Position numbers and translations under genes: made by a program. From contig JBMORM010000010.1 in the NCBI GenBank assembly GCA_049322675.1, forward strand, positions 19,028 to 83,027: a stretch of DNA of 64,000 nt. The letters are read 5' to 3'. The stretch is from Patescibacteria group bacterium. Lineage in GTDB: Bacteria > Patescibacteriota > JAHJAL01. Under the pieces are notes generated by a model. It had not been told where the DNA came from and did no database searches. It was given only the letters and a program-made list of their open reading frames with translations. Shown one piece after another: positions 6,080 through 38,732 of this stretch. Position 1 is the stretch's first letter; the number at the start of each line of letters is the position of its first letter.

Positions 6080-6096
6080 TAAAAAATAATATCATC

Positions 6097-6276
6097 GTAC
6101 GGGCGGGTAAACCCCGCCCGTACGATATCAATTGTAGGGGCGAGGTCCCCTCGCCCGACGTCAATCCGTAAGGGCGGACCCATGTGTCCGCCCTTTTTTG
6201 TTGGAGATTACAAAATGATACAATTGATTTATTGATTATTAATGAATTGTAGGGGCAGGTCATGACCTGCCCATCA
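6097..6276. repeat. REP-like palindrome cluster (duplicate of the 3338..3482 cluster)
   Basis: The units are cgtacgggcgggtaaaccccgcccgtacga, gtaggggcgaggtcccctcgcccg, gggcggacccatgtgtccgccc and gtaggggcaggtcatgacctgccc. The unit order matches the 3338 cluster, and it is followed by the same aaaaattaaataat tract. Confidence 0.85.
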
Positions 6277-18968: not shown

Positions 18969-18990
18969 TTATTGTATTTCAAATCAAGGC

Positions 18991-19116
18991 GTCATTCTGG
19001 AGCCGAAAGCGTATTCGCGCTTCGACATCCAGAATCCAGAAAGAAAAGAATAAAATATAGAAATGGATCCTGGATATTGAAGCGCCCAGTAGGGCTTTCA
19101 GTTCCAGGATGACACA
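18991..19116. mobile_element. MITE-like double-hairpin element (core copy)
   Basis: gtcattctggagccgaaagcgtattcgcgcttcgacatccagaatccagaaag...ggatcctggatattgaagcgcccagtagggctttcagttccaggatgacac. Its ends are inverted repeats of each other (GTCATTCTGGA / TCCAGGATGAC). Confidence 0.8.
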
Positions 19117-19167: not shown

Positions 19168-19806
19168 GTGACTAGCTCCGTGAGTGGGGAAGTTGAAAAT
19201 TATTTTGACTGTAATATTATTGATCAATCTTCGTTAATATCTATGGATGAAAGTAATCAAATAGATTTACAAATGGAGCAGGAATTGGTGGAAAGAGCCA
19301 AGACGGACGATTTGGCTTTTGAGCAATTGTACAATCTGTATTTTCCGAAAATATATGGGTTTGTTTACAAGCGGGTTGGCCAAAAACAGATTTGCGAAGA
19401 TATAGTATCGGAAGTGTTTATGAAAGTTTTTACCAACCTCAAGGATTATCGGGATCAAGGGATGTCTTTTGGTTGTTGGGTTTACAAGATTGCGACCAAC
19501 AAATTGATTGATTACTATCGAAGCGGTAAAAAGCAAATGGTGGTGGGAGTGGAAATGATGGAAAATATCGGGTCGAAAGAAAACATTGGGGAGCAAACAG
19601 CCAACAAGATGGAAGTGGAGGAGATTCAAACAGTTATTTCCACTCTTGCCGAAAATTATCAACAGATTATAAATTTAAAATTTTTTGCGGAACTAAGCAA
19701 TCAGGAGATCGCGAAGATTTTGAAAATTTCGGAGAATAATGCTGGGGTAATTATTTTTAGGGCGTTGAAGAAGTTTAGGGAGGAATACGGGAAAAAGAAT
19801 TTATAA
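19168..19806 (+). CDS. ECF-type RNA polymerase sigma-70 family factor
   Basis: Region 2 (VERAKTDDLAFEQLYNLYFPKIYGFVYKRVG..EDIVSEVFMKVFTNLKDY..FGCWVYKIATNKLIDYYR) and region 4 (INLKFFAELSNQEIAKILKISENNAGVIIFRALKKFRE). The true start may be the internal Met at 19243 or 19273. Confidence 0.85.
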   Translation: MTSSVSGEVENYFDCNIIDQSSLISMDESNQIDLQMEQELVERAKTDDLAFEQLYNLYFPKIYGFVYKRVGQKQICEDIVSEVFMKVFTNLKDYRDQGMSFGCWVYKIATNKLIDYYRSGKKQMVVGVEMMENIGSKENIGEQTANKMEVEEIQTVISTLAENYQQIINLKFFAELSNQEIAKILKISENNAGVIIFRALKKFREEYGKKNL

Positions 19807-19830
19807 TTTTCAATTTTCAATAAAGAAGAT

Positions 19831-19951
19831 GTCATTCTGGAGCCGAAAGTGTAATCACGTTTCGACATCCAGAATCCAGAAAGAAAAAATTATTGAAATG
19901 GATCCTGGATATCGAAGTGCCCATTAGGGCTTTCGGTTCCAGGATGACACA
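19831..19951. mobile_element. MITE-like double-hairpin element (core copy)
   Basis: gtcattctggagccgaaagtgtaatcacgtttcgacatccagaatccagaaag...ggatcctggatatcgaagtgcccattagggctttcggttccaggatgacac. Confidence 0.8.
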
Positions 19952-20003
19952 AAGACAAGGAAGTATTGAAAATTGAAAATTATAAATTGAAAATTTAATA
20001 AAC

Positions 20004-23000
20004 ATGGAAAATGATTTCAATAAAAAACTAGAAGAGGCGATCAAAACAGGCGTGTTTGATCAAATCGAGTGTAATAATGACGAAGAAAGATCGTTACTTA
20101 AAGCAGGAAAGAAAATTTATCAGGCTAAATTTAAAGCAATTCCTGCTGATAACGGTTTTAAAAATGTTCTTTTTGACAGATTAAAACAGGCGCGGCAGGG
20201 AGAAGGAAAAACAATGGAAAAAGAAATGGTCAAAGGGCAACAATTTGATTGGTGGGCGTTTTTGACTCAAAGAAAATGGGCGGTGGGAATTGCCTCGTTT
20301 TTGCTGGTGGCAATAGTCGCTTCATTGTTGTATTGGCTGCCAGGGACCAAGCAGACGACCGGTGGGATTTTGATCCCACGGGCCCAGGCGGATGAAATGT
20401 TTACTTTCAAACCGACAAAAGCGGACAGTATCGGGATTGACGAAGAAAGTGATTTTTCTCTGGTAAGTCAGATTGATTTAAAATTGGCAGATGTTGAAAA
20501 GTATTTGGAAGTAGATCCGGCATTTAAATATAGTGTTAAGGAAATTTCCGCACGGGAATTTTTGATTGATAGCCAGGAGAAACTAAATCCAAAACAGATT
20601 TACAAATTTAAATTGAAAACAACGACTCAGGACGCGAACGTTTTGGAAAGCCGCGATTTTGATTGGGCATATCAGATCAAGGACGAATTTAGAATTACCG
20701 GAACCATACCTGGCGATAAAAGTGATGCTGTGCCACTGGATAGCGGAATTGAAATAAATTTTAATCAGGAGAATTTTGTTAATTTCGATCAGTCAATCGA
20801 AATCAGTCCTGCCATACCGGGTCGATTGGAAAAGCATTATAAAACTTTGGTATTTGTGCCGACGGAAAACTTGCAGGCTTCAACTTTGTACCAAGTAAAA
20901 GTCAGTAAGTCGATTGTTTTGGATGGAAGTGATAAAAAATTGGCCGAGGATTATACTTTTGCTTTTGAAACTTCCACCGATACTACAAAAGATGGATATT
21001 TTGAAATAGAGGATGAGGTTGGGCAATATGGTCCGGAGGAAGTGCCGGGGGTCAAGATGTGGGTCAATATTTTTGACTCAGACGAGAATAAAGATGTGGC
21101 GACCAAGTTATTTCGTTTGGAATCGCAGGATCAGTTTTTGGATTTGTTGAACAAACGAAACGAAATTCCGTTGTGGGCAAGTCAAGCGCGTAATCGCGCG
21201 CAGGTGGATGTGACCGGTTTGAATAAAGTTGGTGAATATAATTTGCCGATTCATCGTTTGGATTACAATCAGTATATTTTGTTTCCGGATAAATTGCCTA
21301 TCGGATATTATTTGGCGCAATTTACAGTCAAAGGACAAACTAGACAATCTTTTATTCAAATCAGTAATTTGACCGCATATACTTCGATCAGTAAAACAAA
21401 TAGTTTGGTGAGAATATATAGTTTGGCGGGACAGAAACCAGCAGCGGGTACGGTTTTAACTATGTATCAAGGCGAACTGGAAGAACAAACAAATGATGAG
21501 GGAATTGCCTTTTTTGCGACACCGGAAGTTTTGTTGACGATATCGGAAAAAAGTCGATTTTTGCTGGCGACCGGAGCGGACGGAGAATTGGTAATTCCGA
21601 TAAAGAACTACGAGCGTGGCCAGATTTTTGATACGGATACGTCGGAGAATGATAATTTTTGGCGATATGTTTTTCTCGATCGCAGCGTTTATCACCCGAC
21701 AGACACAATCAAATTTTGGGGAATGATAAAACCTCGTGATGCAAATACCGCTAAGGTCAGTAAAGTATCGGTCGGAGTAGAGATGTTTTATCCGCGAACA
21801 GATGTTTTCGGAACAGTAGAAGTTGATTTGAATGAAGATGGTATATTTAGCGGAGAATATCAATTGAAGAATATGCCGACCAGTTCTTTGAATTTTACAA
21901 TCAGGGGTGAAAATGATGAATTGTTGCTCACTTCGTATTTGAATATCGAAGATTATATCAAGCCGGCTTATAGGATTGAATTGTTGCCGGATAAAAAAGC
22001 AGTAGTGCAAGGAGAGACGGTAAATGTTCGGGTAAAGGCGAAATACTTTGACGGAACACCGGTCGCCAATTTGGATCTGGATTATCAAGGTTTGACCATC
22101 AAAACCGATCAAGTGGGAGAAACAAATTTTACAGTTGAGACCACTGATAAAGCCAATTGTTCCGATTATAACTGCTGGTCAAGTTCGAGCACGATTGAAG
22201 TAAAACCATTGCGGGCGGAAGAAGGAGAGATTGTCGGAGTGACATCTGTGGACGTTTTTCCGGCCAAAGAAATGGTGAAGATATCGGGTAAGTATGATGA
22301 GGAAAATGGACAGATTGCTTGGAAAATAAATGTTAATGAAGTCGGTTTTGAGCGATTGAATCTGGGTGAAAAAAATTATTACGATGATTATATCGGACAG
22401 AAATTACCTAATCATGAAATACAAGTTCAGATTTATGAAAACTGGTGGGAGAAGACCGAAACAGGAGAAGAGGAATATGATTTTATCAACAAAGTGACCA
22501 GAAAAAAATATAGTTATTCGAGAGAAGAAAAATTGATCAAAGAATTTGGGGAAAAAACAGACGAAAATGGAGAGTATGATTATGTATTAAATAATTTGAC
22601 GGCCGGTAAAGATTACACTATGCGGGCAAGCATAGTGGATCCGGACGGAAGACAATATTTCAATCGAGCCACGATTTATTTTGATGGAGGGAACTATCAA
22701 AGCATTTTTATTGATTCCTATGGTTTTAGAAAAGACGAAAATGAAGATGTCAAAACATTTAAATTGGGCGAGAAAGTCAATTTGACCATGGTAAAAAATA
22801 GTTTTGACTCTATACCGGACAAAACGGGAAGTTATATTTTTTATCAGGCACAAAACGGAATCACTGAATATCAGGTTGGTGATAGTTCAAAATATGAATT
22901 TACTTTTGAAGAAAAGCATATTCCCAATGTCAATGTGATCGGAGTTTATTTTGACGGGGCACGTTTTTATCACACCAAAAAAGTATGGAATGATATGACT

Positions 23001-25571
23001 ATATTCTTCGATTATGAGCAGCGCCGATTGCAGCTTGAGGTAAAAGCAGAAAAGGAACAATACGAGCCGGGTGATGAGGCGACGGTAAAAATTGAGGTAA
23101 AGGACGAAAATGGCCAGCCAACTCAAGCACATGGCAATATCTCTTTGGTGGATGAGGCGTATTTTGATTTGTTCAATCGGGAACCTGTGGATACCCTGGC
23201 TTTGTTGTACTCAAAAGTGGAAGACGGTATATTCTTTAGCGAGACTTCCAATAAACCGTTGACGAAAATGATTTTCCAAGGTGGATGTTTTACCGCCGGG
23301 ACAAAAATATTGATGGCCGATGGAACCACCAAGGCGATCGAAGATATTCGTTTGGGCGATTTGGTATCAACTTTTGTTAATGAACATTCCAATATCAAGA
23401 TGACGGACAAGGTAACAAAAATTTTCAACGAAATTTCCGGTGGATATTTGGTGATCAACGATCGGCTCAATGTCACCTCCCACCATCGACTTTTGGTTAA
23501 TAATAAATGGATGACAGCGGGCGAGATAAAAGTAGGCGATTATTTGCGGGATCAAGACGGTGAGTTGGTCAAAGTGGAAAAAATCGAAACAAAAAGTGGC
23601 CGATTCACGGTGTACAACTTTACCACGGAGGCAACTCATACATATATCGCTGACGGAATATATGTCCACAACAGCAAAGGTGGAGGGAGGGAAAGTTTTG
23701 AAGATACCGCCTTTTTCTCTTCATGGAAAACTGATCGAAACGGGAAAGCCACCGTCAAGTTTACTTTGCCGGATAATATCACCAGTTGGAGAATTACCAC
23801 TCAGGGAATTTCGTCCACATTGAGAGCCGGTAGTGGCACCAACAAATTGGTAGTGACTCAACCAATATTTTTGGACATGTCTTTGAATACAAGTTATGTC
23901 AATACAGACAAGCCGATTGTTCCTATCCGAGTCTATGGAGAAAATATGACGGCGGACGACGAGGTGGAAATTACTGTCGAATCAAAAACTTTGAAAACAA
24001 AAGAAAAGTTGCACGGCAAAGCATTTACGACAATCGAATGGTTGATGCCGGAATTGAAGGTGGGGGAACAGGAAATTATCGTGACAGCAAAAGCCAAAGG
24101 ACTGACCGATAGTGTCAAGCGTTCATTTGTGGTAAAAGATACACGATTGACCAAACAGATGAGTCAGAGCGTGAAATTGACAGCGGATTTGAAACCGAAA
24201 CAACAGTCAGAAAATGGCCGGGTGGAGTGGAAGTTTTTTAACGGCGATATCGGATGGGCTTACGAAAATTTGCTCAATGCCAGTTGGCAGGATGGAGAGA
24301 GAATTGATCAAAAGCTGGCGCCGGTAGTGGCAGAAAAATATTTGCAAGAAAGTTTTGGTCTCGGATCGGGCGCGCAAAAAGTTGACGAAATAGCCAAATA
24401 TCAACGAGAAGATGGCGGATGGTCATTGCTTCCCTACTCTGACAGCGATTTGAAATTGTCGGCACTGACGGCAGGAATCGTCCCGGCTGAATGGCAAAAT
24501 GTTACCGAAGCCAAAAAATATTTTAACAATATTTTGGATAATAAAAAAAGTAATACCACTGAGATAGCCATGGCTTTGTATGGTTTAACAAATCTGGATG
24601 AACCGGTTTTGAATCAAATCAATCAGATTTTGAAATGGCCGGAACTGAAGCCAATTGATCAAATCTATTTGGGATTGGCGGCGGAAAAATCGGGCGCCAA
24701 AGAATTGGGAAGAAATATATTGCATGATGTTTTGCAAAAAAATGCGAAAACTAGCGGTGACAATATGTTTATTCCACAATCAGACCAATCGGCTCAAGAC
24801 GAGATCACCAGTCTGGCGGCAATCTTGGCCAATGCCACCGAAATGGACGAAAAGGAAAGCCTGATGAATTATCTGCGAGAGGGTCGGGATGGTGACAATT
24901 TGTATCTTTGGGAAAAAATGATCATCACCAAGAATATTTTGGATAGAAACAATGACCTAGATAGCGAATTTACTTATACTGTGGCAGGAAAAAACAAAAA
25001 AATAAGCCTAAAAAATAACGAGGAATTTGCTCTGAGTTTGACCAATGAGGAAAATAGCAGTTTGGCCTTTTCTCAAATCAAAGGGAAAATAACAGCAGTA
25101 GCGACATGGGAAGAGAAAGCAATAGATACAACAACCGACAAAAATCTGAAAATCAGCCGGGAATACTGGGTCAACGACCAGAAAGTAGATGTCGTCAGAG
25201 AAAATGATTTGGTTGAAGTGCGCATATTTCCTCAAATCAGTGAAGAAGCTCCATCTGACGCTTATCAGATTACCGATCTTTTACCTAGTGGATTAAAACC
25301 AATTACCAGAACATATACGCCATATTGGGGGAACAATGGAGGAAATTGGAAATGCAATGTGTACTTCCCGTCGGATATTAGCGGACAAAAGTTGAGTTTT
25401 ATCGTTTATAAAAACTTAATGCACTCCGGCTGTGAGGGTGGATATATCAGTTATTTTGCCCGGGTAAGCAACAAGGGCGATTTTACCCGCGAATCGGTAA
25501 CGATCAATCAAGTTGACGAGCCAACGTTCCGTTTGACCAGCCAGGAAGACAAGAGATTGGTGATTGAATAA
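20004..25571 (+). CDS. Membrane-anchored alpha-2-macroglobulin (A2M)-family protein with an inserted Hint/intein-like domain; short N-terminal cytoplasmic segment + single TM (anti-sigma-like placement)
   Basis: 1855 aa. The TM helix is WAVGIASFLLVAIVASLLYWL, around aa 92-112. Big/SbsA-Ig-like N-terminal domains are present. The bacterial A2M macroglobulin-domain motif is RESFEDTAFFSSWKTDRNGKATVKFTLPDNITSWRITTQG (compare YfhM/ECAM ..F.ETAFF.P...TD..G...V.F.LPDNLT.WR). The thioester-domain region is FGLGSGAQKV...KYQREDGGWSLLPY, with the CxEQ site degenerated to GSGAQ. A C-terminal receptor-binding-like domain follows. Confidence 0.8.
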   Translation: MENDFNKKLEEAIKTGVFDQIECNNDEERSLLKAGKKIYQAKFKAIPADNGFKNVLFDRLKQARQGEGKTMEKEMVKGQQFDWWAFLTQRKWAVGIASFLLVAIVASLLYWLPGTKQTTGGILIPRAQADEMFTFKPTKADSIGIDEESDFSLVSQIDLKLADVEKYLEVDPAFKYSVKEISAREFLIDSQEKLNPKQIYKFKLKTTTQDANVLESRDFDWAYQIKDEFRITGTIPGDKSDAVPLDSGIEINFNQENFVNFDQSIEISPAIPGRLEKHYKTLVFVPTENLQASTLYQVKVSKSIVLDGSDKKLAEDYTFAFETSTDTTKDGYFEIEDEVGQYGPEEVPGVKMWVNIFDSDENKDVATKLFRLESQDQFLDLLNKRNEIPLWASQARNRAQVDVTGLNKVGEYNLPIHRLDYNQYILFPDKLPIGYYLAQFTVKGQTRQSFIQISNLTAYTSISKTNSLVRIYSLAGQKPAAGTVLTMYQGELEEQTNDEGIAFFATPEVLLTISEKSRFLLATGADGELVIPIKNYERGQIFDTDTSENDNFWRYVFLDRSVYHPTDTIKFWGMIKPRDANTAKVSKVSVGVEMFYPRTDVFGTVEVDLNEDGIFSGEYQLKNMPTSSLNFTIRGENDELLLTSYLNIEDYIKPAYRIELLPDKKAVVQGETVNVRVKAKYFDGTPVANLDLDYQGLTIKTDQVGETNFTVETTDKANCSDYNCWSSSSTIEVKPLRAEEGEIVGVTSVDVFPAKEMVKISGKYDEENGQIAWKINVNEVGFERLNLGEKNYYDDYIGQKLPNHEIQVQIYENWWEKTETGEEEYDFINKVTRKKYSYSREEKLIKEFGEKTDENGEYDYVLNNLTAGKDYTMRASIVDPDGRQYFNRATIYFDGGNYQSIFIDSYGFRKDENEDVKTFKLGEKVNLTMVKNSFDSIPDKTGSYIFYQAQNGITEYQVGDSSKYEFTFEEKHIPNVNVIGVYFDGARFYHTKKVWNDMTIFFDYEQRRLQLEVKAEKEQYEPGDEATVKIEVKDENGQPTQAHGNISLVDEAYFDLFNREPVDTLALLYSKVEDGIFFSETSNKPLTKMIFQGGCFTAGTKILMADGTTKAIEDIRLGDLVSTFVNEHSNIKMTDKVTKIFNEISGGYLVINDRLNVTSHHRLLVNNKWMTAGEIKVGDYLRDQDGELVKVEKIETKSGRFTVYNFTTEATHTYIADGIYVHNSKGGGRESFEDTAFFSSWKTDRNGKATVKFTLPDNITSWRITTQGISSTLRAGSGTNKLVVTQPIFLDMSLNTSYVNTDKPIVPIRVYGENMTADDEVEITVESKTLKTKEKLHGKAFTTIEWLMPELKVGEQEIIVTAKAKGLTDSVKRSFVVKDTRLTKQMSQSVKLTADLKPKQQSENGRVEWKFFNGDIGWAYENLLNASWQDGERIDQKLAPVVAEKYLQESFGLGSGAQKVDEIAKYQREDGGWSLLPYSDSDLKLSALTAGIVPAEWQNVTEAKKYFNNILDNKKSNTTEIAMALYGLTNLDEPVLNQINQILKWPELKPIDQIYLGLAAEKSGAKELGRNILHDVLQKNAKTSGDNMFIPQSDQSAQDEITSLAAILANATEMDEKESLMNYLREGRDGDNLYLWEKMIITKNILDRNNDLDSEFTYTVAGKNKKISLKNNEEFALSLTNEENSSLAFSQIKGKITAVATWEEKAIDTTTDKNLKISREYWVNDQKVDVVRENDLVEVRIFPQISEEAPSDAYQITDLLPSGLKPITRTYTPYWGNNGGNWKCNVYFPSDISGQKLSFIVYKNLMHSGCEGGYISYFARVSNKGDFTRESVTINQVDEPTFRLTSQEDKRLVIE
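23286..23672 (+). other. Hint-domain insertion (mini-intein or bacterial intein-like domain, 129 aa, no endonuclease) within the A2M-like ORF
   Basis: The segment starts with Cys (CFTAGTKILMADGTTKAIEDIRLGDLV...), ends with ...THTYIADGIYVHN, and is followed by Ser (+1). The flanks IFQGG | SKGGGRESFEDTAFF are continuous host sequence leading into the conserved A2M motif. Confidence 0.75.
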
Positions 25572-25595
25572 AGTTTGGGTTATATTTCAATTTTC

Positions 25596-25624
25596 GTAGA
25601 GGCGGTTCATGAACCGCCTCTACA
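25596..25624. repeat. REP-like palindrome (single unit)
   Basis: gtagaggcggttcatgaaccgcctctaca is a perfect hairpin, nearly identical to the copy at 52845. Confidence 0.85.
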
Positions 25625-25705
25625 TATTTTGTGGTTATTTTTCCTTGATTTTTACCTGATAATATGAGATAATATGGGGATTTGGAAAAATCTTAACCTT
25701 ATCAT

Positions 25706-30055: not shown

Positions 30056-30059
30056 AAAA

Positions 30060-33000
30060 ATGATTGAAAAAATTGATAATGTTTTTGAGAACAATGAAGA
30101 TAATCTGGGAAAAAACTCCTTTGCAGGCCCAACACAAGATGTCCAAAAACAGAAACCCAATGAAGATTTAGTTTGGATGCGAGGGGTAGAAAGTGGATTG
30201 ATCATGATGGATCAAGATTTGAAAGAGATTCAGGAAGGAGAATATTTTGAGAAAAAAAGACAGATCGATCAAAAAGAAAAAGAGATTTTTTGGCAGAGGT
30301 TGGCATCTTTGAATAATCAAGATATCAATGAAGAAAATGTCGGTGATATCTTGGCGATAGCAAAAATTGGTGAGTGTCTGCGCGGCGAACTGATAAATGA
30401 TATTGAGGAAAAATCGGCGAATGAAATGGAATTAAAGAATCAGATTGCTGCTCTTGAAGAAAAAAGAGAAAAAATAAGAAAAAACCATTGGACCAGATTA
30501 ATCCCGATTTCTGACATCGCTTATATTTTTCGACCAAAAGAGAAATTGAGGGAGGTAAATCAAGAGATCAGAAAACAAAAAGATGATTTGTATATTTTAT
30601 CTAGTAGAAAACAAAAGGATAAAGAGTCCTTGGAAAAGATAAATGAGTTTTATCAGAAAAATACACCAGAGAAATTGTTTGCCGCTAAAGCCAAGAAAGA
30701 AATTGGCAAGACAATCGAGGGAGCTTTAAAGTCAATCGAGCAGAAATATGGGGGAAAAATTGAGTCCGACAATCAAATTCTTTGGGATTTGACCAGGCAA
30801 AATTTCAAGAAGGAGATTCTTGCCAACGTGGCTAATTCTTTGTTGGATAAAAAATGGGAGGATGATTATCGTAAAATTTTGGAGGAGGCAATAAAAGAAA
30901 AGGTTAAAAAAATCGATCAGGAAAAAATAGTTTATAACAAAAAGAATTATAGCTTCGATCCTCAAAAGTGGCTATCTCAAGACAGTGATATATTTTTATC
31001 TGATTATGACGATTACGGAGTGAGAAAGGTGGCGGATTGGGATTGGAAAAATTATAGGGGGGTGTTTGACAACGCCCCGATGATCAGAGAAATAATTGAC
31101 GGATTGGCAATAAAAATCACTCGCAAATTAATGGAAGATGAATTTGTTTTTCATCCCCAGCAAACCAAAGAAATTTTGAACAGGATTATTGAACCGGAAA
31201 AGATTTTGCCCTATTTGTTTTTGGGAATCAAGCACAATTGGCTGGAAGGAAACGGATACAAAACGAAAACACATCTTGATTTTTTGACGGAAATAAAAGC
31301 CGATTTGAAAAATAAGAGTAATTTTTATCATGCAATCAAACAAGAGACTTCAGTTTTGAAAGTTGCCGATCGTAAAATAGCATACTCTGATGGAGGGGGC
31401 GATTTGAAGGTGAAATGGAATCAGGGAGATGAGTTTACCAATCAAGATGCCGAGAGATTAAAGTTGTTTTTTGATCCATCGTCTATGTTTAATCACTTGA
31501 GAGGCAAGATTAACGGCAAAAATGATAACGATCCCGACCTTACATTTTTAGTTGCCGACAAACGATGGGTGCAAAGACAGGAAAAGTATTCGCGATTACT
31601 TTTGCAAAAAAACATTACTGCTGATTTGGAAAAAAATATCAAAACTGAAAAAGATTTGGCCGGATTTTATCATGATGAGATTAGTTCTTTGGATAGGTTT
31701 GCCAATAGAATATTTAGTTTGGCAGAGAATAAAGACGAGGGGGATCGGATATTTCAGGATTTTAAAGACGATTTATCGAAAAGGATGAGTTTCGGCGAAG
31801 CTACTTTGAAAGGTTGGAATACGATTTCCGAGAATACAAATCTTGCGAAAGAACAAATTTGGCAGATTTTTTTTGATGGTCTAAAAACTAAAAAAAGTTT
31901 TCCGTTTGATCCGCAAATAGTCGGACGCGAATTGGATATTTTTTCCAAGATGGCGGCGGCAGGATATTGTCAGGAACGGATTTTGTTGGATAAATTTGAG
32001 GAGCAATTGTTGGAGGTGGCTAATTGGGATAATGTTTTAGGTATTTTTAAGATGGTAAAAATAATGCCCGGGCTGGAGAAAGAAACGGTGCAATCATTTT
32101 TTCACAAAGTCTATGATGGCATCAATCACCAAAGACCGTTTGTTAGCTTTGAGGATTGGGTAAAACAATTGGACGAGATGATCAATATGACCGCAATAGA
32201 TAAAGACGGATTGCCCAACTGGGAAATAGATGTAAAAGAATTTGAGGAAAGTAAAGATATTACCCAATATCAACAGATGATATATAAAAAATTTATCTCC
32301 AGTCTTGTATGCAAAATTGATCAAACCCAATCAAACGCGAGGGAAAATGCTCAAATGCTTTCGGAAAAAAGCGGAGTTTCATTGGAAAAAATATACGCCT
32401 GGTTGTTGTCTTTGGAAAACGATGTGAGATTGGAAAACAATCAAATTTTTCAGAATTTGTTGGCTGAAGAAAATGAACAATTTTTAATCAAATTTATTGG
32501 CGAAATATCCGGATGGAAAGAAGACAAATCAGAAAACAGATTAACCGACGAAGAGATAAATGAGAAGATCAAAATATTTTTGACGAAATGCCCCAAAAAA
32601 AATAAAAAATCCATCCTATCGGAGATGGTGAATCTGAGTCGAATGAAAAACCGGGAGAAAAATATCGGACAGACAATGATAGCCTGGATAATAAATAGTG
32701 CTGGTAGAGAAAAGAATTTTAATCCCAATAAATTGTCAACTATTGTCTCCATGTTATCAGTTTGCAAAAGATTACACTGGAATACAGAATTTTTACCACT
32801 CGGACCCGAATACGAAAAATTGTTGAATGAAAGAAAAATGGCAGTCATGACATTGGATTTAAAGGAATTTAATTGGCAGAACATGTCGGATAATATAATT
32901 GAGCAAATGCGAGAATTTTTGGGTCGGGAGAAAGATGAAGTCAGAAATAGTTTGACACAAGAGTTTTTGTACTGTCCCCTGGTGAACAAGAAGATTTATC

Positions 33001-34661
33001 AAGAGATTTTTGGCAATGATATTATTACCACATTTCTTAATTGTTTACCGAAGTCTCCCGACCGACGGGAACAAAGCGACCCAAAAAAGGAAGCATTGAA
33101 TCGGGGTAAATATGATCGAGTAACTCCCTGGCTACAATTGATAAGCAATTATTCCGCCGGACTGACATTGACTGAAACTAGTTGGAAATACTGCGGTGAA
33201 TTTATCAAAAAGTACGGCTTGAATGAAGAGAGATTGTGGTTTGAAACATACCGAGATCTATGGCTAAAGGATAATAATATGGCCGACAAAAATGTATTGG
33301 AGAGGATAAATACAACTGGGTTGCAATCGTTGAAAGACTTGGAAGAAAGCAAGAAAAAAATCGAAGATGGACTAATCGGCGACAAATTTGAACTCGATTT
33401 CACCAAATTGAATAATTTTGAGAAATCAATGTTGGACATTATTTTGGGATTGAGCAGTCATAGTCACAATCAAGGAAAACTTTCTCTAGAAGAAGTAATT
33501 GATAATTTTTTACTGGAGAAAGACAACATTAGAGACCTGACGGAAAAATACAAAATATTTTCTTATGATGTCAAAAAGTTGGGCGAGGCGGCGGAGATGC
33601 CGGCCGAAGATAAAGAAAAATATCTCAATATCATCAGTCAAATTAAAGAATTTAGAAAAACCGATTGGCGAAAAATTTGGTCGGGAATGGTTGGAAAAAT
33701 GACCGGAAAGGAACTAACGCAAGATGAATTCGAGCGAATTGACAACAGGCAAACGTTGATGGATTTGTTGAAATTGATAACCGAGAACAAGACTGAATTC
33801 ACCTATAAATACGAGGCTTTAATCAAAAGAATTATTTGGAATACCGTATTAAAGAAAGATTTTCCGACTGAAGAGATGGCTAGCCAACGTCTGAAGGCGT
33901 TGGGAAATCCGGAGAATATTGAACAGGCTGAATCATTGTTGATAAACAATGTTTTGGAGCATGCAATAATCGGGCATATCGAAGATGGTAGCGAAGGAAA
34001 AAATAGTCTGGGAGAGATATGGGGAGAGGAGTTGGCAACAATCATGTCTCGACCGGAGACGCAAAAATGGTTGGTGGAAATATTTGCCCCCGAAAAAAAT
34101 TTATTGGCGGAATTGCGCACAAAACGAGACCGAATAAAAAAATTATCAGAAATAACCGAGATCAAATTTGTTCCCGGACGGGATTTTTTGGGTAGTGTCG
34201 CCGCATATATCGGCGACGCCTGCTATTCAAAAAAAGTACAGTACATGAGTTCTTATGACGGTATCAAAGGACCATTGGTTATGCCCTATCGCATTATCGT
34301 CAATAGAGAAATAGTAGGTTCGGTTTTGATTTTTGAACTCAAAGACGAAAAGGGAGAAAATGACGCTATGTTGGTGAGAGCTTTTAATATTCCGAAACAT
34401 GCAAAGGATTTTGATATGAACGAACTGATAGAAAATTTCTTGAACGAATTGGAGCCAATAGCCAAAGAAAAAGGATATCGAAAAATTGTTGTACCCGGCA
34501 AGTCGCAATCCGGATCGATCAGTAATTCCGAGGTGATAAAAAATATATTTATAAATACTTATACGAAAGAGGAAAATAAGATAGAATTGAAACAGGAATT
34601 TGATTTCAATGGTTATCCGTTGAAAAATGACTGTTATGTAGCAAGGGAGATTAAAATATGA
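30060..34661 (+). CDS. Giant (1533 aa) K/E-rich hypothetical protein, probably co-transcribed with 25706..30055
   Basis: Uninterrupted ORF that starts 5 nt after the preceding stop. Heavy antisense ORF noise inside is typical of a real AT-rich coding region. No recognisable catalytic motif. Confidence 0.7.
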   Translation: MIEKIDNVFENNEDNLGKNSFAGPTQDVQKQKPNEDLVWMRGVESGLIMMDQDLKEIQEGEYFEKKRQIDQKEKEIFWQRLASLNNQDINEENVGDILAIAKIGECLRGELINDIEEKSANEMELKNQIAALEEKREKIRKNHWTRLIPISDIAYIFRPKEKLREVNQEIRKQKDDLYILSSRKQKDKESLEKINEFYQKNTPEKLFAAKAKKEIGKTIEGALKSIEQKYGGKIESDNQILWDLTRQNFKKEILANVANSLLDKKWEDDYRKILEEAIKEKVKKIDQEKIVYNKKNYSFDPQKWLSQDSDIFLSDYDDYGVRKVADWDWKNYRGVFDNAPMIREIIDGLAIKITRKLMEDEFVFHPQQTKEILNRIIEPEKILPYLFLGIKHNWLEGNGYKTKTHLDFLTEIKADLKNKSNFYHAIKQETSVLKVADRKIAYSDGGGDLKVKWNQGDEFTNQDAERLKLFFDPSSMFNHLRGKINGKNDNDPDLTFLVADKRWVQRQEKYSRLLLQKNITADLEKNIKTEKDLAGFYHDEISSLDRFANRIFSLAENKDEGDRIFQDFKDDLSKRMSFGEATLKGWNTISENTNLAKEQIWQIFFDGLKTKKSFPFDPQIVGRELDIFSKMAAAGYCQERILLDKFEEQLLEVANWDNVLGIFKMVKIMPGLEKETVQSFFHKVYDGINHQRPFVSFEDWVKQLDEMINMTAIDKDGLPNWEIDVKEFEESKDITQYQQMIYKKFISSLVCKIDQTQSNARENAQMLSEKSGVSLEKIYAWLLSLENDVRLENNQIFQNLLAEENEQFLIKFIGEISGWKEDKSENRLTDEEINEKIKIFLTKCPKKNKKSILSEMVNLSRMKNREKNIGQTMIAWIINSAGREKNFNPNKLSTIVSMLSVCKRLHWNTEFLPLGPEYEKLLNERKMAVMTLDLKEFNWQNMSDNIIEQMREFLGREKDEVRNSLTQEFLYCPLVNKKIYQEIFGNDIITTFLNCLPKSPDRREQSDPKKEALNRGKYDRVTPWLQLISNYSAGLTLTETSWKYCGEFIKKYGLNEERLWFETYRDLWLKDNNMADKNVLERINTTGLQSLKDLEESKKKIEDGLIGDKFELDFTKLNNFEKSMLDIILGLSSHSHNQGKLSLEEVIDNFLLEKDNIRDLTEKYKIFSYDVKKLGEAAEMPAEDKEKYLNIISQIKEFRKTDWRKIWSGMVGKMTGKELTQDEFERIDNRQTLMDLLKLITENKTEFTYKYEALIKRIIWNTVLKKDFPTEEMASQRLKALGNPENIEQAESLLINNVLEHAIIGHIEDGSEGKNSLGEIWGEELATIMSRPETQKWLVEIFAPEKNLLAELRTKRDRIKKLSEITEIKFVPGRDFLGSVAAYIGDACYSKKVQYMSSYDGIKGPLVMPYRIIVNREIVGSVLIFELKDEKGENDAMLVRAFNIPKHAKDFDMNELIENFLNELEPIAKEKGYRKIVVPGKSQSGSISNSEVIKNIFINTYTKEENKIELKQEFDFNGYPLKNDCYVAREIKI

Positions 34662-34975
34662 TCATTTTTTTAAATTGGTATTATCGGACTTTGACCGTCG
34701 GACTGGCGGGGATTTTTTTGGATATATTTAGCACGATATCTCAGTCGTTCGCCATATCGATTATGGCCAAACATATTTTTGAACCTCTTTACCAGGATTA
34801 CACTTACGCCGGACGAGTGATCGGATTTTTTATCCGGTCGGGGAGGATAATATTGGGACTGATAGTAGAATTTATTTTTCTGCTTATTATCGGCTTGATC
34901 ATGATTTTATGGGTCTTGCTGCCACTGATTATAATTGGAAAAATAATTTTTATACTTTTTACGATGTGGGGCTAA
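34658..34975 (+). CDS. Small membrane protein (105 aa), translationally coupled (ATGA overlap) to the preceding giant gene
   Basis: The start ATG overlaps the stop of 30060..34661. Two to three hydrophobic helices (TVGLAGIFLDIF..., ILGLIVEFIFLLIIGLIMILWVLLPLIIIGKIIFILF). Confidence 0.5.
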   Translation: MIIFLNWYYRTLTVGLAGIFLDIFSTISQSFAISIMAKHIFEPLYQDYTYAGRVIGFFIRSGRIILGLIVEFIFLLIIGLIMILWVLLPLIIIGKIIFILFTMWG

Positions 34976-34977
34976 AG

Positions 34978-35087
34978 AGCAATTTCCAATTTCCAATTCT
35001 CAATTTCCAAAAAATATTTTGTTGGAATATTGGGAAATTGGTTATTGGAAATTTATTGGAAACTGGAAATTGGTTATTGGAAATTTT
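34978..35087. repeat. AATTTCCAA/TTGGAAATT heptad-repeat dyad element (family 2)
   Basis: caatttccaatttccaattctcaatttccaaaaaatattttgttggaatattgggaaattggttattggaaatttattggaaactggaaattggttattggaaatttt lies immediately upstream of the ClpC-like gene start. Confidence 0.8.
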
Positions 35088-37766
35088 ATGAATAAGTTGA
35101 AGGTTGAACTCATTGATTGTCAAAACTGTGCGGTGAATAACGGCGATAGTAATTGCGTGTATTGCAATGGCAAGCAGTATTTGGCCAAAGCAGGCGGCAT
35201 GATATTGTTTTGGGGGCCAAGTAAAGATCCGACTTTTATCAAATCGCCGGAGTATTTGCGTTTTAAAAAAATGACCAAGACCTTGATGTTTTTTGCCAAT
35301 TTGATCATGTTGATTTTGACGACGGTGATTATGGCGATTACTGCTTTGAAGGGCGGACAGAATTTTGTTTTGGATATTTTGGTAAAAAGTTCGCCGGCCA
35401 CTTTTTTGTGGTGGGTGTTGTCGGGATTACTTTTGATAACAGCTTTCAATTATTTTTATCGGGAAGCAAAAATTAAACCGGTCAGGGATTTTGGACCGGT
35501 ACCGACACACGACAGTTTATTTCGACGCGTGGATATTGCAAAAGCGTTTGACGGGGATTTGGTGACGACTTTGAATTTGGCGATAATATCTGCTCATAAG
35601 GCCAATAAGACCCCAAATATTTGGTGGCTACTTCGAGAATTAATGAGCGACAACAAATTTTTGTGGATGATTGTCAAAATGGAATTAAATCCGCAACTTA
35701 TTTCCGGTTTTGTCGATTTTCGCTTGAACAATTTTGAAAGCCGAGAAAATTGGGAAAAAGATTGGGACAAAGTTTTGCTTGAGGCTTATCTGGAGGGAGC
35801 TCGCATGCGAGCGGACGAGATTTCCTTTAATCATTTGTTTTTGGCCATGATAAAAGCAGATCCGGAAATCGCCCACATATTTGATGAACTGGGGCAATCC
35901 CCACGGGAAATTGAAACAGTTTGTCTATGGCAGGAAAAAATAAATAAACAAATCGCCCGTAATCGGGAATATCGGGAAAAATCTCGTTTCAAGCCGATGG
36001 GGCACATGAATCGGGCCTGGACAGCAGTGCCGACACCGATATTGGATTCTTTTGGTCAGGATTTGACAGCCATGGCCAAATATGAAGCGTTGGAGAGATT
36101 AATCGGAAGGGAAAAGGAAATTTCTCAGACGATGAATGTTTTGGAAAAAATGTCCAAAAATAATGTTTTGTTTATCGGTGAATCCGGGGTGGGAAAATCA
36201 ACGATTGCCAATGGTCTGGCCTACAAAATGGTTTCGGAAGAAGTGCCGGAAATGTTGAAAGACAAGAGATTGATCAATTTGAATATAACTCGTCTTTTTA
36301 GTTCAGCGGGAGACGGGGCGGAAAGATTATTTTTGGGCGCATTGAACGAAGTAATACGGGCCAAAAATGTGATTTTATATATCGATGATTTACATTTGCT
36401 GGCTGGCATCAAGACACGTTCGGGCGGACCGATGGATGCTTTGGCAATTTTGTCGGAAACTTTGAGTAAATATCGGATTCAATTTATCGCTTCCACCAGT
36501 CCGGAAGGTTATTCCAAATATATCAGCACTTATGACCAAATAGTTTCCGAATTGACTTCGATTGAAATACCGGAAGTGGACAATGAAACAGCAATTGCGA
36601 TTTTGGAGGAGGTCACGCATCGGATTGAAAATCAAAATCAGGTGCTAATCACCTATCCGGCGTTGAAAATGGCGGTGGAATTGTCAGCGGATTTGATTAC
36701 CGAGAAAAAATTGCCATCCAAGGCCTATGATCTTTTGACAGAAGCAGCGGTAGTGGCTCGTAATCAAAATAAAAAATTAATGACCAAACAAGATATCATT
36801 AATTTAATGCAGGAAAAAACGCATGTGCCGATTGCCCAGGTAACGACAGAGGAATCAAAATTGTTGCTCAATTTGCACGATGAATTGCACAAACGAGTGA
36901 TCGGTCAGGAATTGGCGGTCAAAGAGGTAGCGGAAGCGATCAAACGGGCAAGAGTAGGATTGAAAGATAAAAGCAAACCGATTGCCTCATTTTTGTTTGT
37001 GGGACCAACCGGAGTGGGAAAAACAGAGCTGGCCAAAGCTTTGGCGGCACTATATTTTGGTGATGAAGAACGAATGATCCGTCTGGACATGAGTGAATAC
37101 CAAGAGGTAAGCGATATCAAAAAAATAATCGGCGCGCCGCCCGGTTCGTCGGAATTCGAGGAAAGAGGTTATCTCACCGAAGCAGTGAAAAAGAATCCAT
37201 TTAGTTTGGTCTTGTTGGACGAGTTGGAAAAAGCTTATCCCAATATTTTGAATCTGTTTTTGCAAGTGTTGGACGAGGGAAAGATCAAGGATAGTCTGGG
37301 ACGGACAGTGAAATTTAATAATACGATTATAATCGCTACCTCCAACGCGGGAACGCCCAAGATTCAGGAAGGGATAAAAAATAATCTGCCTCACGAACAG
37401 ATCGAAGAACAGTTGATGGAAGAATTGAAAAAAGTGTATCGACCGGAGTTTTTGAACCGGTTTGACGGAGTGATCATGTTTGAACCGCTCAAAGTGGAGG
37501 AAATATTACAAATTGCCAAATTGATGATTGCCAAGATAAACAAGTCGTTGGCCAACCAAAAAATCACCGTGGAGGTGATGGATGAGGCTTTAAAATCTTT
37601 TATCGCCGGCGGTTACAATCAAGAGTTTGGCGCCAGGGCGCTGTATCGCACTTTGCAGGACAAGGTAAAAAATGTGATCGCGGAGAAGATGCTGACGGGC
37701 GCACTAAAAGAAGGGATGAAGTTGACCATCGTCAAAGATGGGGAGACGAAGGTGGAGAGGGGGTAA
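35088..37766 (+). CDS. Membrane-anchored ClpC/ClpA-like double-AAA+ ATPase with N-terminal zinc-ribbon and TM helices
   Basis: Start chosen at ATG 35088, because the ORF-track start 35019 runs through the repeat element. The N-terminus has CQNCAVNNGDSNCVYCNGKQY plus 2-3 TM helices. Two Clp_N repeats are present. NBD1 is LIGREKEISQTMNVLEKMSKNNVLFIGESGVGKSTIANGLA. NBD2 is VIGQELAVKEVAEAIKRARVGLKDKSKPIASFLFVGPTGVGKTELAKALA...SEYQE and ...FRPEFLNRFDGVIMFEPL. Confidence 0.85.
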   Translation: MNKLKVELIDCQNCAVNNGDSNCVYCNGKQYLAKAGGMILFWGPSKDPTFIKSPEYLRFKKMTKTLMFFANLIMLILTTVIMAITALKGGQNFVLDILVKSSPATFLWWVLSGLLLITAFNYFYREAKIKPVRDFGPVPTHDSLFRRVDIAKAFDGDLVTTLNLAIISAHKANKTPNIWWLLRELMSDNKFLWMIVKMELNPQLISGFVDFRLNNFESRENWEKDWDKVLLEAYLEGARMRADEISFNHLFLAMIKADPEIAHIFDELGQSPREIETVCLWQEKINKQIARNREYREKSRFKPMGHMNRAWTAVPTPILDSFGQDLTAMAKYEALERLIGREKEISQTMNVLEKMSKNNVLFIGESGVGKSTIANGLAYKMVSEEVPEMLKDKRLINLNITRLFSSAGDGAERLFLGALNEVIRAKNVILYIDDLHLLAGIKTRSGGPMDALAILSETLSKYRIQFIASTSPEGYSKYISTYDQIVSELTSIEIPEVDNETAIAILEEVTHRIENQNQVLITYPALKMAVELSADLITEKKLPSKAYDLLTEAAVVARNQNKKLMTKQDIINLMQEKTHVPIAQVTTEESKLLLNLHDELHKRVIGQELAVKEVAEAIKRARVGLKDKSKPIASFLFVGPTGVGKTELAKALAALYFGDEERMIRLDMSEYQEVSDIKKIIGAPPGSSEFEERGYLTEAVKKNPFSLVLLDELEKAYPNILNLFLQVLDEGKIKDSLGRTVKFNNTIIIATSNAGTPKIQEGIKNNLPHEQIEEQLMEELKKVYRPEFLNRFDGVIMFEPLKVEEILQIAKLMIAKINKSLANQKITVEVMDEALKSFIAGGYNQEFGARALYRTLQDKVKNVIAEKMLTGALKEGMKLTIVKDGETKVERG

Positions 37767-37806: not shown

Positions 37807-38446
37807 TATTTCGAGGGGATCATATAAAACTTAGCAAACATATCAAACCTAGCAAACTTAACAAAATTTTTAAAAAATACAGCCGAAGGGCTGTTTTTTT
37901 AGAGTTCGGACACAACTTGAATGTTTACACTTTTAACTTATCACCTCACACGGGATCTGTTGCAAGCCCGTAAGGTAAGAGGCTCCTACTCGATCGTGGC
38001 CGGAGAGGACGGCGTAAACCGGGCCGCAGGCGAGGTTGATTTGAAACAATTTGATCCGGCTGGAATTTTTGTTGGGACTGAAAATTGTTTCAATATTCAT
38101 GGGAAATTGCGGGATAGTAATTATTTGTTGAAAGAGATTGAGAAAATGTTGTTTTTTGTAATCCAACAAGCGACGATCGGACAAAATTCTATTTACCCCT
38201 ACCCAACTATATGCGACATCCCGGTTGGTTGATTGTTGTGAATTGATGGAAATGGGGCGAAAGGAATATTGTCTGACTCGATGCCGAAGTTGACGCAGTC
38301 GCGTGGCAAAGTCGTTGGTAAGAGTCAGGGGTTGATCGGCCTGTATAACTTCAATTTGTAAACACAGACTCTTGTATATTTCCAGGCGGGAAAGCCGGTT
38401 TTTGGCGAGATTGTTTAATTTGATAGATTCGAGGGAAGACATAAGA

Positions 38447-38545
38447 CAATTTTTAATTTTCAATTTTTCCCCTCACGGGGACCAGCTGCTGCCGGTAATT
38501 TTCAATCAATTTTCAATGTTTCAATTTCACAATTTTCAAACAAAA
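38447..38545. repeat. Left arm of a family-2 heptad element, interrupted by a MITE copy
   Basis: caatttttaattttcaatttttcccctcacggggaccagctgctgccggtaattttcaatcaattttcaatgtttcaatttcacaattttcaaacaaa. The right arm lies at 38688..38735 beyond the MITE. The ccctcacgggga-ccagctgctg segment recurs reverse-complemented at 63300..63340. Confidence 0.7.
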
Positions 38546-38549
38546 AGAT

Positions 38550-38674
38550 GTCATTCTGGAGCCGAAAGCGTAATCGCGTTTAGACATCCAGAATCCAGAA
38601 AGAAAAAATTTAATAAATTAAGGAAATGGATCCTGGATATTGGAGCGGATTACCTTCCAGTTCCAGGATGACAC
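38550..38674. mobile_element. MITE-like double-hairpin element nested inside a family-2 heptad element
   Basis: gtcattctggagccgaaagcgtaatcgcgtttagacatccagaatccagaaag...ggatcctggatattggagcggattaccttccagttccaggatgacac. Confidence 0.8.
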
Positions 38675-38732
38675 AATACATTATTATCATTGGAAATTTA
38701 TTGGAAATTGAGCCTTGGAAATTGGAAATTTT

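Follow-up and report, generated by a model that had tools for sequence, protein, structure and literature searches.

Sigma/anti-sigma pairs that come apart through regulated proteolysis, such as SigW-RsiW, SigV-RsiV and SigE-RseA, combine a small sigma factor that has only regions 2 and 4 with a downstream, often overlapping gene whose product has a cytoplasmic tail, one transmembrane (TM) helix and an extracytoplasmic sensor, and they share an autoregulatory promoter with a CGT-containing -10 element. In model bacteria, anti-sigma fragments are degraded by Clp-family unfoldases, as known for RseA/ClpXP and RsiW/ClpXP. Bacterial alpha-2-macroglobulins (A2Ms) have a chain of MG domains, a bait-region domain, an A2M domain, a TED-like helical domain and a C-terminal MG10-like domain, and include members with a thioester (E. 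coli YfhM/ECAM and Salmonella A2M) and thioester-less members (YfaS, Pseudomonas MagD). Bacterial intein-like (BIL) domains, which have a HINT fold, occur in variable regions of bacterial proteins, often lack a +1 nucleophile and self-cleave or splice non-canonically (PMC5874633), and one of them, BIL2, makes lysine isopeptide bonds without ATP, conjugating a ubiquitin-like domain (PMC8616854). Here we describe a locus of a Patescibacteria (candidate phyla radiation, CPR) genome that shares the features of such sigma pairs and such A2Ms listed above: a gene for an extracytoplasmic function (ECF) sigma factor followed by one for a membrane-anchored A2M-like protein with a BIL-type HINT domain. 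It lies in a 64,000-nt stretch of DNA (the window; contig JBMORM010000010.1, positions 19,028 to 83,027).

We consider it fairly probable that the interval consists of two adjacent transcription units, a sigma/anti-sigma pair (unit 1, 19.2-25.6 kb) and then a separate operon (unit 2, 25.6-37.9 kb). The demonstrated part of this reading comprises gene content, domains, synteny statistics, motif conservation and fold matches. The preliminary description of the interval had listed six consecutive plus-strand genes, and all six open reading frames (ORFs) are present exactly where it placed them (Table 1). Their co-orientation is uninformative by itself because ten consecutive genes, from 13981 to 37766, share the plus strand.

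Table 1. Features of the interval, with positions counted from the first letter of the window
Feature	Position	Strand	Evidence or remark
ECF sigma ORF as first read	19168-19806	+	ORF list
ECF-type promoter motif TGTAAT-N15-TCGTTA (TGTAAT-N16-CGTT)	19210-19236	+	ends 7 nt before sigma ATG
ECF sigma factor, 187 aa	19243-19806	+	Pfam, NCBIfam, orthologue alignment
Palindromic repeat element, ~130 nt, between sigma and A2M genes	19826-19955	+	RNA fold -59.3 kcal/mol, z=-9.1
A2M-like membrane protein, 1855 aa, candidate anti-sigma factor with A2M ectodomain	20004-25571	+	ORF list; Pfam
Cytoplasmic N-terminal tail, aa 1-91, candidate sigma-binding domain	20004-20276	+	topology prediction
Second copy of the sigma promoter motif	20070-20096	+	within A2M codons 23-31 (CNNDEERSL)
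Single TM helix, aa 92-112	20277-20339	+	hydropathy scan
BIL-type HINT domain, 129 aa, C1095...H1222-N1223, +1 S1224	23286-23672	+	Pfam PT-HINT
Degenerate thioester site GERIDQ, R1433 replacing the CxEQ cysteine	24294-24311	+	hhalign
Terminator-like hairpin directly after A2M stop codon	25596-25623	+	12-bp stem, 7 G-C pairs, T-rich tail
Predicted sigma70-type promoter of unit 2, TTGATT-17-GATAAT with upstream TG	25645-25673	+	scan and L001 conservation
Giant 1, 1449 aa, K/E-rich, transglutaminase-like core aa ~1115-1260	25706-30055	+	ORF list; Pfam Transglut_core
Giant 2, 1533 aa, GNAT-fold C-terminal domain aa ~1364-1533 (nt 34149-34658)	30060-34661	+	ORF list; no Pfam match
Conserved membrane protein, 105 aa	34658-34975	+	ORF list; overlaps giant 2 stop by 4 nt
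AT-rich inverted (AATTTCCA)n/(TGGAAATT)n repeat between small gene and Clp gene	34976-35085	+	repeat search
Clp-type ORF as first read	35019-37766	+	ORF list
Membrane-anchored Hsp100/Clp-type double AAA+ ATPase, 892 aa	35088-37766	+	Pfam, orthologue alignment
Terminator-like hairpin after Clp gene	37879-37894	+	terminator scan

An ECF sigma gene paired with an A2M-like membrane protein

The first gene encodes an ECF sigma factor, as had been proposed, with Pfam matches to Sigma70_r2 (1.3e-16), Sigma70_r4_2 (6.6e-12) and Sigma70_ECF (1.8e-06) and 103 bits against the NCBIfam sigma70-ECF model (cut-off 42.9); BldN/SigM are the nearest models, below their cut-offs. Its size and its possession of regions 2 and 4 only are those of the ECF group (group 4), whose members have about 170-220 aa. 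The ORF as first read opens at GTG 19168, and the true start is likely ATG 19243 because the orthologues (185-211 aa) align from this codon and a conserved promoter sits within the first-read ORF.

Upstream of the sigma gene, four diverged lineages have nothing but TGTAAT-N16-CGTTAA and the start codon in common, and in at least 13 lineages TGTAAT-N16-CGTT is followed at a constant 7-8 nt by ATG or GTG. Such spacing implies leaderless or near-leaderless sigma mRNAs across many Patescibacteria lineages. The strict motif has two matches in the window vs 0.01 expected. Over 1.70 Mb of loci, the relaxed motif was found 14 times before sigma genes, eight times in A2M 5' ends and 26 times elsewhere, compared with about 0.05 and 0.2 matches expected from the background rate in the sigma-upstream and A2M 5' windows, respectively. 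The sigma gene is therefore preceded by a conserved motif predicted to be an autoregulatory promoter, whose CGT-containing -10 element we take to resemble those of B. subtilis SigX/SigW/SigM promoters. We predict that the gene is transcribed from this ECF-type promoter, probably as a leaderless mRNA.

The second gene encodes an A2M-like protein with the Pfam domains Big_5, MG2, A2M_BRD, PT-HINT and A2M, that is, with MG domains, bait-region domain and A2M domain in the order typical of the family, and in Foldseek searches the regions flanking the HINT domain match A2M, C3, C4, C5, CD109 and A2ML1. All of its homologues belong to metagenome-assembled genomes of Patescibacteria/CPR (Magasanikiibacteriota, Uhrbacteria, Peregrinibacteria, Gracilibacteria, Collierbacteria and others). 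A genome scan yielded at least 585 loci, of which 80 were retained and 77 non-redundant ones surveyed.

Gene context was compared at eight A2M loci. In the window, L001, L004, L007 and L008 the A2M gene is directly preceded by an ECF sigma gene, with an overlap of 4 nt in L007 and 8 nt in L008; L002, L006 and L009 have no sigma gene there. The TM helix of the A2M lies at residue 66-94 in all five sigma-linked loci and at residue 5-21 in the three loci without sigma. This pattern holds in the 77-locus survey of sigma adjacency, for which we used our own hidden Markov models (HMMs): a co-oriented ECF sigma gene is immediately upstream of the A2M in 35/77 loci, with a gap of -35 to +197 nt and many overlaps. 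On the basis of inferred start codons, which weakens the comparison, the cytoplasmic tail is 36-109 aa long (median 68) in the 35 sigma-adjacent loci and has an upper-bound median of 18 aa in the other 42. A tail threshold of 37 aa is reached by 34/35 loci with sigma vs 8/42 without. The Mann-Whitney test on tail length gives p=3e-11, an optimistic value because the loci are phylogenetically related and their independence is overstated. Tail length thus tracks sigma adjacency, which supports an anti-sigma role for the A2M-like protein.

The preliminary description had noted that this protein occupies the position of an anti-sigma factor, and the comparison bears this out in sigma adjacency and tail length. 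The arrangement is that of an anti-sigma factor, directly downstream of the sigma gene and with a tail, one TM helix and a sensor, although the tail lacks a profile-recognisable N-terminal anti-sigma domain of the ASD/zf-HC2 kind. A Pfam search with aa 1-120 at E<=1 gave only a noise-level SAP match (E=0.16) and no anti-sigma profile, and the tail contains no HxxxCxxC motif. Because the tail matches no profile, we describe the protein as working like a single-pass anti-sigma factor and do not file it in ASD/zf-HC2.

An independent case supports the same claim. P0039 (L093:4423-10136) is a distant A2M from outside the CPR family that keeps its CFEQ thioester intact, along with a TED and a receptor domain, and matches zf-HC2 weakly at the N-terminus; its gene and the ECF sigma gene upstream of it share 4 nt. 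P0039 is an independent candidate for an A2M-type anti-sigma factor outside the CPR family.

The A2M could instead be only a member of the sigma factor's regulon, its long tail serving some other role such as localisation. The absence of an anti-sigma profile at E<=1 agrees with this, and an ECF motif within the A2M gene makes the A2M a likely sigma target. However, the tail is found where a sigma gene adjoins and is nearly always missing otherwise, start/stop overlaps of 1-35 nt are typical for sigma/anti-sigma pairs, there is no other small membrane gene between or after the pair to act as anti-sigma factor, and the independent zf-HC2-A2M fusion P0039 adjoins a sigma gene as well. We therefore think the regulon-member explanation unlikely.

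The ECF motif within the A2M gene is a second copy of the sigma promoter motif in the coding sequence of the tail. An in-frame copy occurs at the same place in eight loci, where the hexamers are retained (TGTAAT/C ... NCG-TTR) while the encoded peptides vary (CNNDEERSL, CNNSEFGAL, CNDPEVSAL, CNDEELSSL, CNDPELCAL, CNKFNKKAL). The Ser or Ala codon at the motif is always TCG or GCG (NCG), followed by TTR; in these genes TCG makes up 2-17% of Ser codons and GCG 15-34% of Ala codons. As judged from the position of the next in-frame Met, M71, which is preceded by GGGAGAAGG, the intragenic promoter might give a tail-less A2M isoform. If used, it would be a compact answer to the problem of inducing a protein that also inhibits its own activator.

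Across the 77 loci, the commonest neighbour of the A2M gene is a Memo-family protein (PF01875), which lies directly downstream in 49, often with overlapping stop and start codons (L002, L006-L009 and 44 further loci; for example L002:12263-13150). All five Memo proteins inspected have an N-terminal signal peptide or anchor. No Memo neighbour is found in the window lineage.

A HINT domain at the bait position and the lost thioester

A part of the A2M-like protein that was overlooked in the first reading is a HINT domain at aa 1095-1223, between A2M_BRD (ending at aa 1056) and the A2M domain (starting at aa 1235). It matches Pfam PT-HINT (4e-11) and NCBIfam intein_Cterm; Intein_splicing and Vint matches are weaker and below cut-off. 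A 14-member family alignment shows no variation at Cys1, the block B TxxH or the terminal HN, and Cys1 and HN are likewise constant in every HINT match listed. We find the domain in 72/77 loci from many candidate phyla, and members without it have a Gly-rich linker at the same place. The PT-HINT match raised a polymorphic-toxin reading, which we rejected since the HINT domain is followed by a conserved A2M/TED/MG10 body and by no variable toxin tip.

An AlphaFold2 (AF2) model of aa 905-1335 places the HINT domain (pLDDT ~90) between two beta-sandwich domains and flanks it with low-confidence linkers (aa ~1079-1093 and 1226-1233), at the site of the protease bait loop. The sequence after it, RESFEDTAFF...LPDNITSW, aligns to the C5 alpha chain from residue ~81, query residue 26 pairing with residue 106. 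C5a comprises C5 alpha-chain residues 1-74, and the C-terminal junction of the HINT domain maps ~7 residues past the end of C5a. On this alignment, the HINT site is the bait site of A2M and the anaphylatoxin-domain site of C3/C5. The best Protein Data Bank matches of the domain are Tetrahymena BUBL BIL2 (6y75, TM-score 0.80) and a Clostridium thermocellum BIL domain (2lwy, TM-score 0.82, 30% identity), and BIL structures rank above mini-inteins.

The +1 residue of the 72 HINT-bearing loci is D in 30, E in 26, A in eight, Q in five, N in one and S in two. The two Ser+1 cases are the window and its 93% relative L010, and since +1 is non-nucleophilic in 70/72, canonical class 1 splicing is not available to the family as a whole. 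Of the marks of a class 1 intein, the HINT domain has Cys1, TxxH and the His-Asn pair, and it lacks a +1 Cys/Ser/Thr outside the window and L010; in place of a conserved insertion site with sporadic spread, we find a Gly-rich variable loop occupied in 72/77 loci. It agrees with A-type BIL domains in the HINT fold, Cys1, His-Asn, the mostly missing +1 nucleophile and location in a variable region of a surface protein.

These counts bear on the possibility that the domain is an ordinary selfish mini-intein, spliced out silently to leave a normal, continuous A2M and of no function to the host. In its favour, the window and L010 have Ser at +1, none of Cys1, TxxH and HN is missing, and NCBIfam intein_Cterm matches. 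Yet the domain is fixed at one site in 72/77 loci over many candidate phyla, has no homing endonuclease, is followed by D/E/A/Q/N in 70/72 cases, sits in a non-conserved Gly-rich loop instead of a conserved active site and has as its nearest structures BIL domains, which cleave or conjugate. A selfish mini-intein is thus improbable here, if marginally less so than the regulon-member explanation above. That 72 of the 77 surveyed loci, drawn from at least 585 candidates, have HINT at the bait position suggests autocatalytic cutting or conjugation as part of the working of these A2Ms. Complement processing offers a parallel, and BIL domains thereby gain a concrete host protein that is widespread.

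The thioester of the A2M is lost. The CxEQ motif is present in most of the distant A2M homologues, and an hhalign comparison of the CPR family with CxEQ-bearing A2Ms (probability 100%, 615 columns) aligns the TED-like region and places the thioester Cys on R1433, which is invariant in the CPR family (window ERIDQ, family consensus DRxDQ). Pfam TED has no match in the protein. The preliminary description was right that the thioester had degenerated but located it at GSGAQ (aa 1454-1458), which is not the homologous position. It had further proposed that other chemistry stands in for the thioester. This may still hold, with the A2M's own HINT domain as the candidate in place of the transglutaminase (TGase) giant downstream.

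From these observations we infer the sigma binding, the activity and chemistry of the HINT domain, the protease signal and the use of the promoters that make up the following scheme. The 91-aa cytoplasmic tail of the A2M would hold the sigma factor. Damage to the ectodomain, or its cutting by foreign proteases, would be the signal that destabilises the anti-sigma factor and frees sigma. Free sigma would raise its own transcription and, through the second promoter in codons 23-31, may make an A2M form without the sigma-binding tail. The HINT domain would form a thioester at Gly1094-Cys1095 and cyclise Asn1223, a reaction that would cut the chain at the bait position or, in the window lineage with its Ser+1, possibly splice it. 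If the A2M body is the sensor, this would be a direct transcriptional response to proteolytic attack on the surface and a new kind of anti-sigma sensor, in ultra-small host-dependent bacteria about whose surface biology very little has been learned.

A more ambitious joint reading, which we rate as a long shot, is that the HINT/BIL domain supplies the reactive thioester lost by the TED, that the same cleavage serves as the site-1 cut and that the released sigma factor fires the intragenic promoter. By analogy with BIL2, a lysine on an attacking protease or a cell-surface target would react with the Gly1094-Cys1095 thioester and so resolve it, giving ATP-independent covalent capture of the kind that BIL2 performs on ubiquitin-like domains. 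A tail-less isoform starting near M71 would then raise output without re-sequestering sigma.

The downstream genes and their probable separation from unit 1

Directly after the A2M stop codon stands a terminator-like hairpin, kept in L001 with compensatory stem changes, and after it a sigma70-type promoter, nearly identical in L001, where it precedes a different giant gene. Because a generic sigma70/terminator scan was not enriched over shuffles (61 vs 55.6 and 18 vs 15.7), only sites conserved in L001 were used. A search for the ECF motif upstream of the giants, the small gene and the Clp gene found no copy. The two giant genes and the small gene are tightly packed, with a 4-nt gap between giants 1 and 2 and a 4-nt overlap between giant 2 and the small gene. 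We predict that unit 2 is a separate operon under a housekeeping-type promoter for one or two lineage-specific giant cytoplasmic enzymes, the small membrane protein and the Clp ATPase.

Giant 1 carries the Cys/His/Asp core of a TGase-like enzyme, as first described: Transglut_core scores 24.9 bits (cut-off 23), and the triad C1187/H1224/D1244, including the catalytic Cys, is conserved in all four homologues. It is a putative PF01841-type protease or transglutaminase by this triad. These four homologues, which include the window protein itself and that of L010, are the only ones among 5.8 billion proteins; a 44%-identical one, P0058, is encoded between cytidylate kinase and SecA with no A2M nearby.

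Giant 2 ends in a domain with a GNAT fold, in which C, R, P, N, L, F and N are invariant across the family, though Pfam GNAT has no match in the protein. This C-terminal region is common to 184 remote cluster representatives, nearly all of them large proteins. Pfam found nothing in nine relatives of giant 2, a search of the other 90 loci with an HMM of its C-terminal domain gave no match, and the contigs of two relatives hold that gene alone. Pfam searches at E<=1 with segments of both giants returned only noise. Neither giant, nor the giant of L001, has a TM helix or signal peptide, which is why we predict them to be cytoplasmic, whereas the A2M body lies outside the cell. The slot of the giants is occupied in L001 by one unrelated 1565-aa giant (Peptidase_M48+ABC1), and L004 has none; there, an 870-bp non-coding spacer (L004:12905-13775) with several hairpins, no giant remnant and no Rfam match takes their place.

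The small membrane protein is 62-74% identical in L001 and L004 and always encoded directly upstream of the Clp gene. The 112-nt spacer between the two in the window is an inserted AT-rich palindrome, missing in L001, where the genes overlap by 4 nt. The likely start of the Clp protein is ATG 35088, matching the orthologues. From the N-terminus it has conserved CxxC...CxxC pairs (aa 11-26), TM helices at aa 65-87 and 104-124, a weak Clp_N-like repeat, D1 and D2. Pfam AAA_2 (8.7e-59), ClpB_D2-small (7.4e-19) and AAA_lid_9 and matches of E ~1e-130 to both ClpC and ClpB place it in the broad Hsp100/Clp family; Clp_N is weakly supported, by one repeat at E=0.004. Pfam at E<=1 gave only noise for the small protein and the N-region of the Clp protein. 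The Clp protein is 64-86% identical across L001 and L004 (86% in L001), compared with 34-42% for the A2M. A PADLOC search matched only the Clp protein, with generic ClpB-like models (PDC-M37B, DolB), and we do not accept an assignment to a defence system.

The preliminary description had called this protein a membrane-anchored ClpC-like unfoldase. Its double AAA+ build, N-terminal CxxC pairs and TM helices are confirmed, but its Clp_N is weak and the distinguishing features of a ClpC unfoldase are missing. In alignment with B. subtilis ClpC the M-domain is absent, query residues 560/557 joining where ClpC has 405-463, and the (I/L/V)-G-(F/L) ClpP-docking loop (VGF/IGF) is deleted from D2, as it is in L001 and L004. 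D1 reads SSAGDGAER, with no pore-loop Tyr (KYRG) and a Walker B DD; in D2, GSSEF replaces the pore loop GYVGY and Walker B DE is kept. The absence of the M-domain, the ClpP loop and the D1 Tyr, the D1 Walker B DD and the changed D2 pore loop are conserved in all three lineages. The protein thus lacks the loop of a ClpP partner, the M-domain of ClpB/ClpC and the aromatic pore loops with which Hsp100 proteins thread, and the ClpC-like unfoldase label is unsafe.

All six genes had been read, speculatively, as one envelope-stress module in which the A2M traps proteases, the TGase giant forms isopeptide bonds and a membrane ClpC services the complex. The genes are co-oriented and keep the same order in L010, the TGase triad is intact and the order sigma-A2M-X-small-Clp is seen again in L001 and L004, but the module is largely refuted by synteny: the full order recurs only in the 93%-identical L010, L001 has a different giant in place of these two and L004 has none, and the giant 1 homologue P0058 lies elsewhere in its genome. 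Moreover, a terminator and a separate promoter divide the A2M from the giants, and the ECF motif, sought upstream of each gene, occurs before sigma and inside the A2M gene and before none of the unit 2 genes. The giants have no export signal although the A2M body is extracytoplasmic, and the Clp protein has no pore-loop tyrosines, ClpP loop or M-domain. Finally, flanking genes (TrxR, I42, S8, the 176-aa ORF and GT2) are conserved too, so the adjacency of the units looks like general synteny within one clade, and their link like shared ancestry of the whole region. We regard the six-gene module as very improbable. This highlights the need for synteny checks before co-oriented giant genes in CPR genomes are taken as one module.

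A narrower coupling has more to be said for it. After a cut in the ectodomain, the membrane Clp ATPase and the small protein could extract or unfold the anti-sigma tail, the two units being functionally linked while transcribed separately. Adjacency in three lineages despite the low A2M identity, together with the degradation of anti-sigma fragments by Clp-family unfoldases in model bacteria, fits this. Against it, 31/35 sigma-linked A2M loci have no Clp or small gene within 10 kb, the ClpP-docking loop and pore-loop tyrosines are gone, the genes have their own promoter without an ECF motif, and giant genes are inserted between the units. Among all surveyed loci, the small and Clp genes occur only in the lineages of the window, L001 and L004; a metagenome scan with the Clp N-terminal region found only the L001 and L004 contigs, and a word-index protein search with it one partial match, P0059 (34% identity). 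We consider such coupling quite unlikely.

Several points nevertheless count against two units of the kind we propose, in addition to the missing anti-sigma profile and the caveats given with the tail lengths. The HINT domain is not specific to signalling because it is equally common in A2Ms with and without sigma, and in the window lineage Ser+1 permits ordinary splicing, after which the chain would simply be continuous again. As for the intragenic motif, conservation of the encoded peptide, C-N-x6-[SA]-L-L, could be enough to explain it. The promoters and the terminator of both units are predictions from the DNA sequence. Lastly, the order sigma-A2M-...-small-Clp in three lineages leaves room for a functional Clp link, for instance the extraction of the anti-sigma tail, slight as we judge its chances to be.

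Surroundings of the locus and comparison with known systems

Just upstream of the cluster are an S8 subtilase of 1000 aa (10822-13824, minus strand), conserved in L001 and with three internal repeats in its gene (10859-12174), and a 719-aa protein with a chagasin-type I42 peptidase-inhibitor domain (13981-16140, plus strand), conserved in L001 and L004. With these two adjoining the cluster, the neighbourhood has a protease/inhibitor theme. Just after the Clp gene lies a 176-aa ORF (37933-38463, minus strand) without a Pfam match, 49% identical in L001, which ends with a conserved GH(D/E)RVGA...GLQQIPCEV motif. Direct repeats (2702-2815 vs 7424-7534) link a 581-aa ORF (1595-3340) and a 592-aa ORF (6329-8107), suggesting that these are paralogues. 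G+C content is ~35-43% and even throughout the region, GC skew is positive, and an Rfam scan of the window gave one tRNA and no other match.

The palindromic element between the sigma and A2M genes has copies at 18988-19116, 19830-19951 and 38547-38685, one on either side of the sigma gene, and partial copies at 8231-8289, 46460-46519 and 54810-54869. It folds as a branched hairpin and has no Rfam match. L010 also carries it, whereas the corresponding site in L001 and L004 is free of it, which suggests a mobile intergenic element and not a part of the conserved system. Most intergenic regions are marked by (AATTTCCA)n tracts and their complement (TGGAAATT)n, often as inverted pairs (18873, 19786, 34976-35085, 37774, 42437, 45583, 46510, 54740, 59740, 60318, 63190 and reverse copies). 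GC-rich hairpins, GGGGCGGGG-N4-CCCCGCCCC, at 6085-6166 and 56675-60558 in otherwise ~40% G+C sequence form two related repeat families of 5-7 copies each.

Compared with known double AAA+ proteins, the Clp protein shares with ClpA, ClpB, ClpC and ClpV two AAA+ modules with Walker A, AAA_lid_9 and ClpB_D2-small. Unlike them it carries N-terminal zinc-ribbon-like CxxC pairs along with two TM helices, lacks the M-domain and the ClpP loop, and has a D1 Walker B of DD and replacements at both pore-loop tyrosines.

The CPR A2M departs from the bacterial A2Ms in having a signal-anchor helix and a cytoplasmic tail in place of a lipoprotein signal, in the HINT domain that occupies its bait position and in its partner, an exported Memo-family protein (49/77) or an ECF sigma factor, and not PBP1C or genes of the yfaS/mag operons. 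Complement C3/C4/C5 have their chain broken at the topologically equivalent site, after the MG6/bait domain and before the alpha-prime chain begins. Unlike these, the CPR protein has neither an anaphylatoxin domain nor a thioester, and the cut would be autocatalytic, made by the HINT domain, and not the work of furin or convertases. With the A-type BIL domains and BUBL BIL2 the HINT domain shares its fold, Cys1, TxxH, His-Asn and the mostly missing +1 nucleophile. It differs from A-type BIL domains in that its host is an A2M, into which it is inserted at one and the same site in hundreds of genomes, and while BIL2 conjugates to lysines, the A2M HINT domain is known here from its sequence and a structural model.

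Set beside the SigW-RsiW type, the pair described here has a 1700-aa A2M-like body as its sensor, no recognisable ASD/zf-HC2 domain, a HINT autoprocessing domain within the sensor and a second promoter copy inside the anti-sigma coding region, and no site-1 or site-2 protease was identified for it. In the searchable literature we found no description of an A2M with a HINT domain or intein in Patescibacteria, or of an A2M-type anti-sigma factor with an ECF sigma factor. ECF signalling, bacterial A2Ms and BIL domains are each already known, and the combination of sigma factor, A2M and HINT domain is a new variant of all three.

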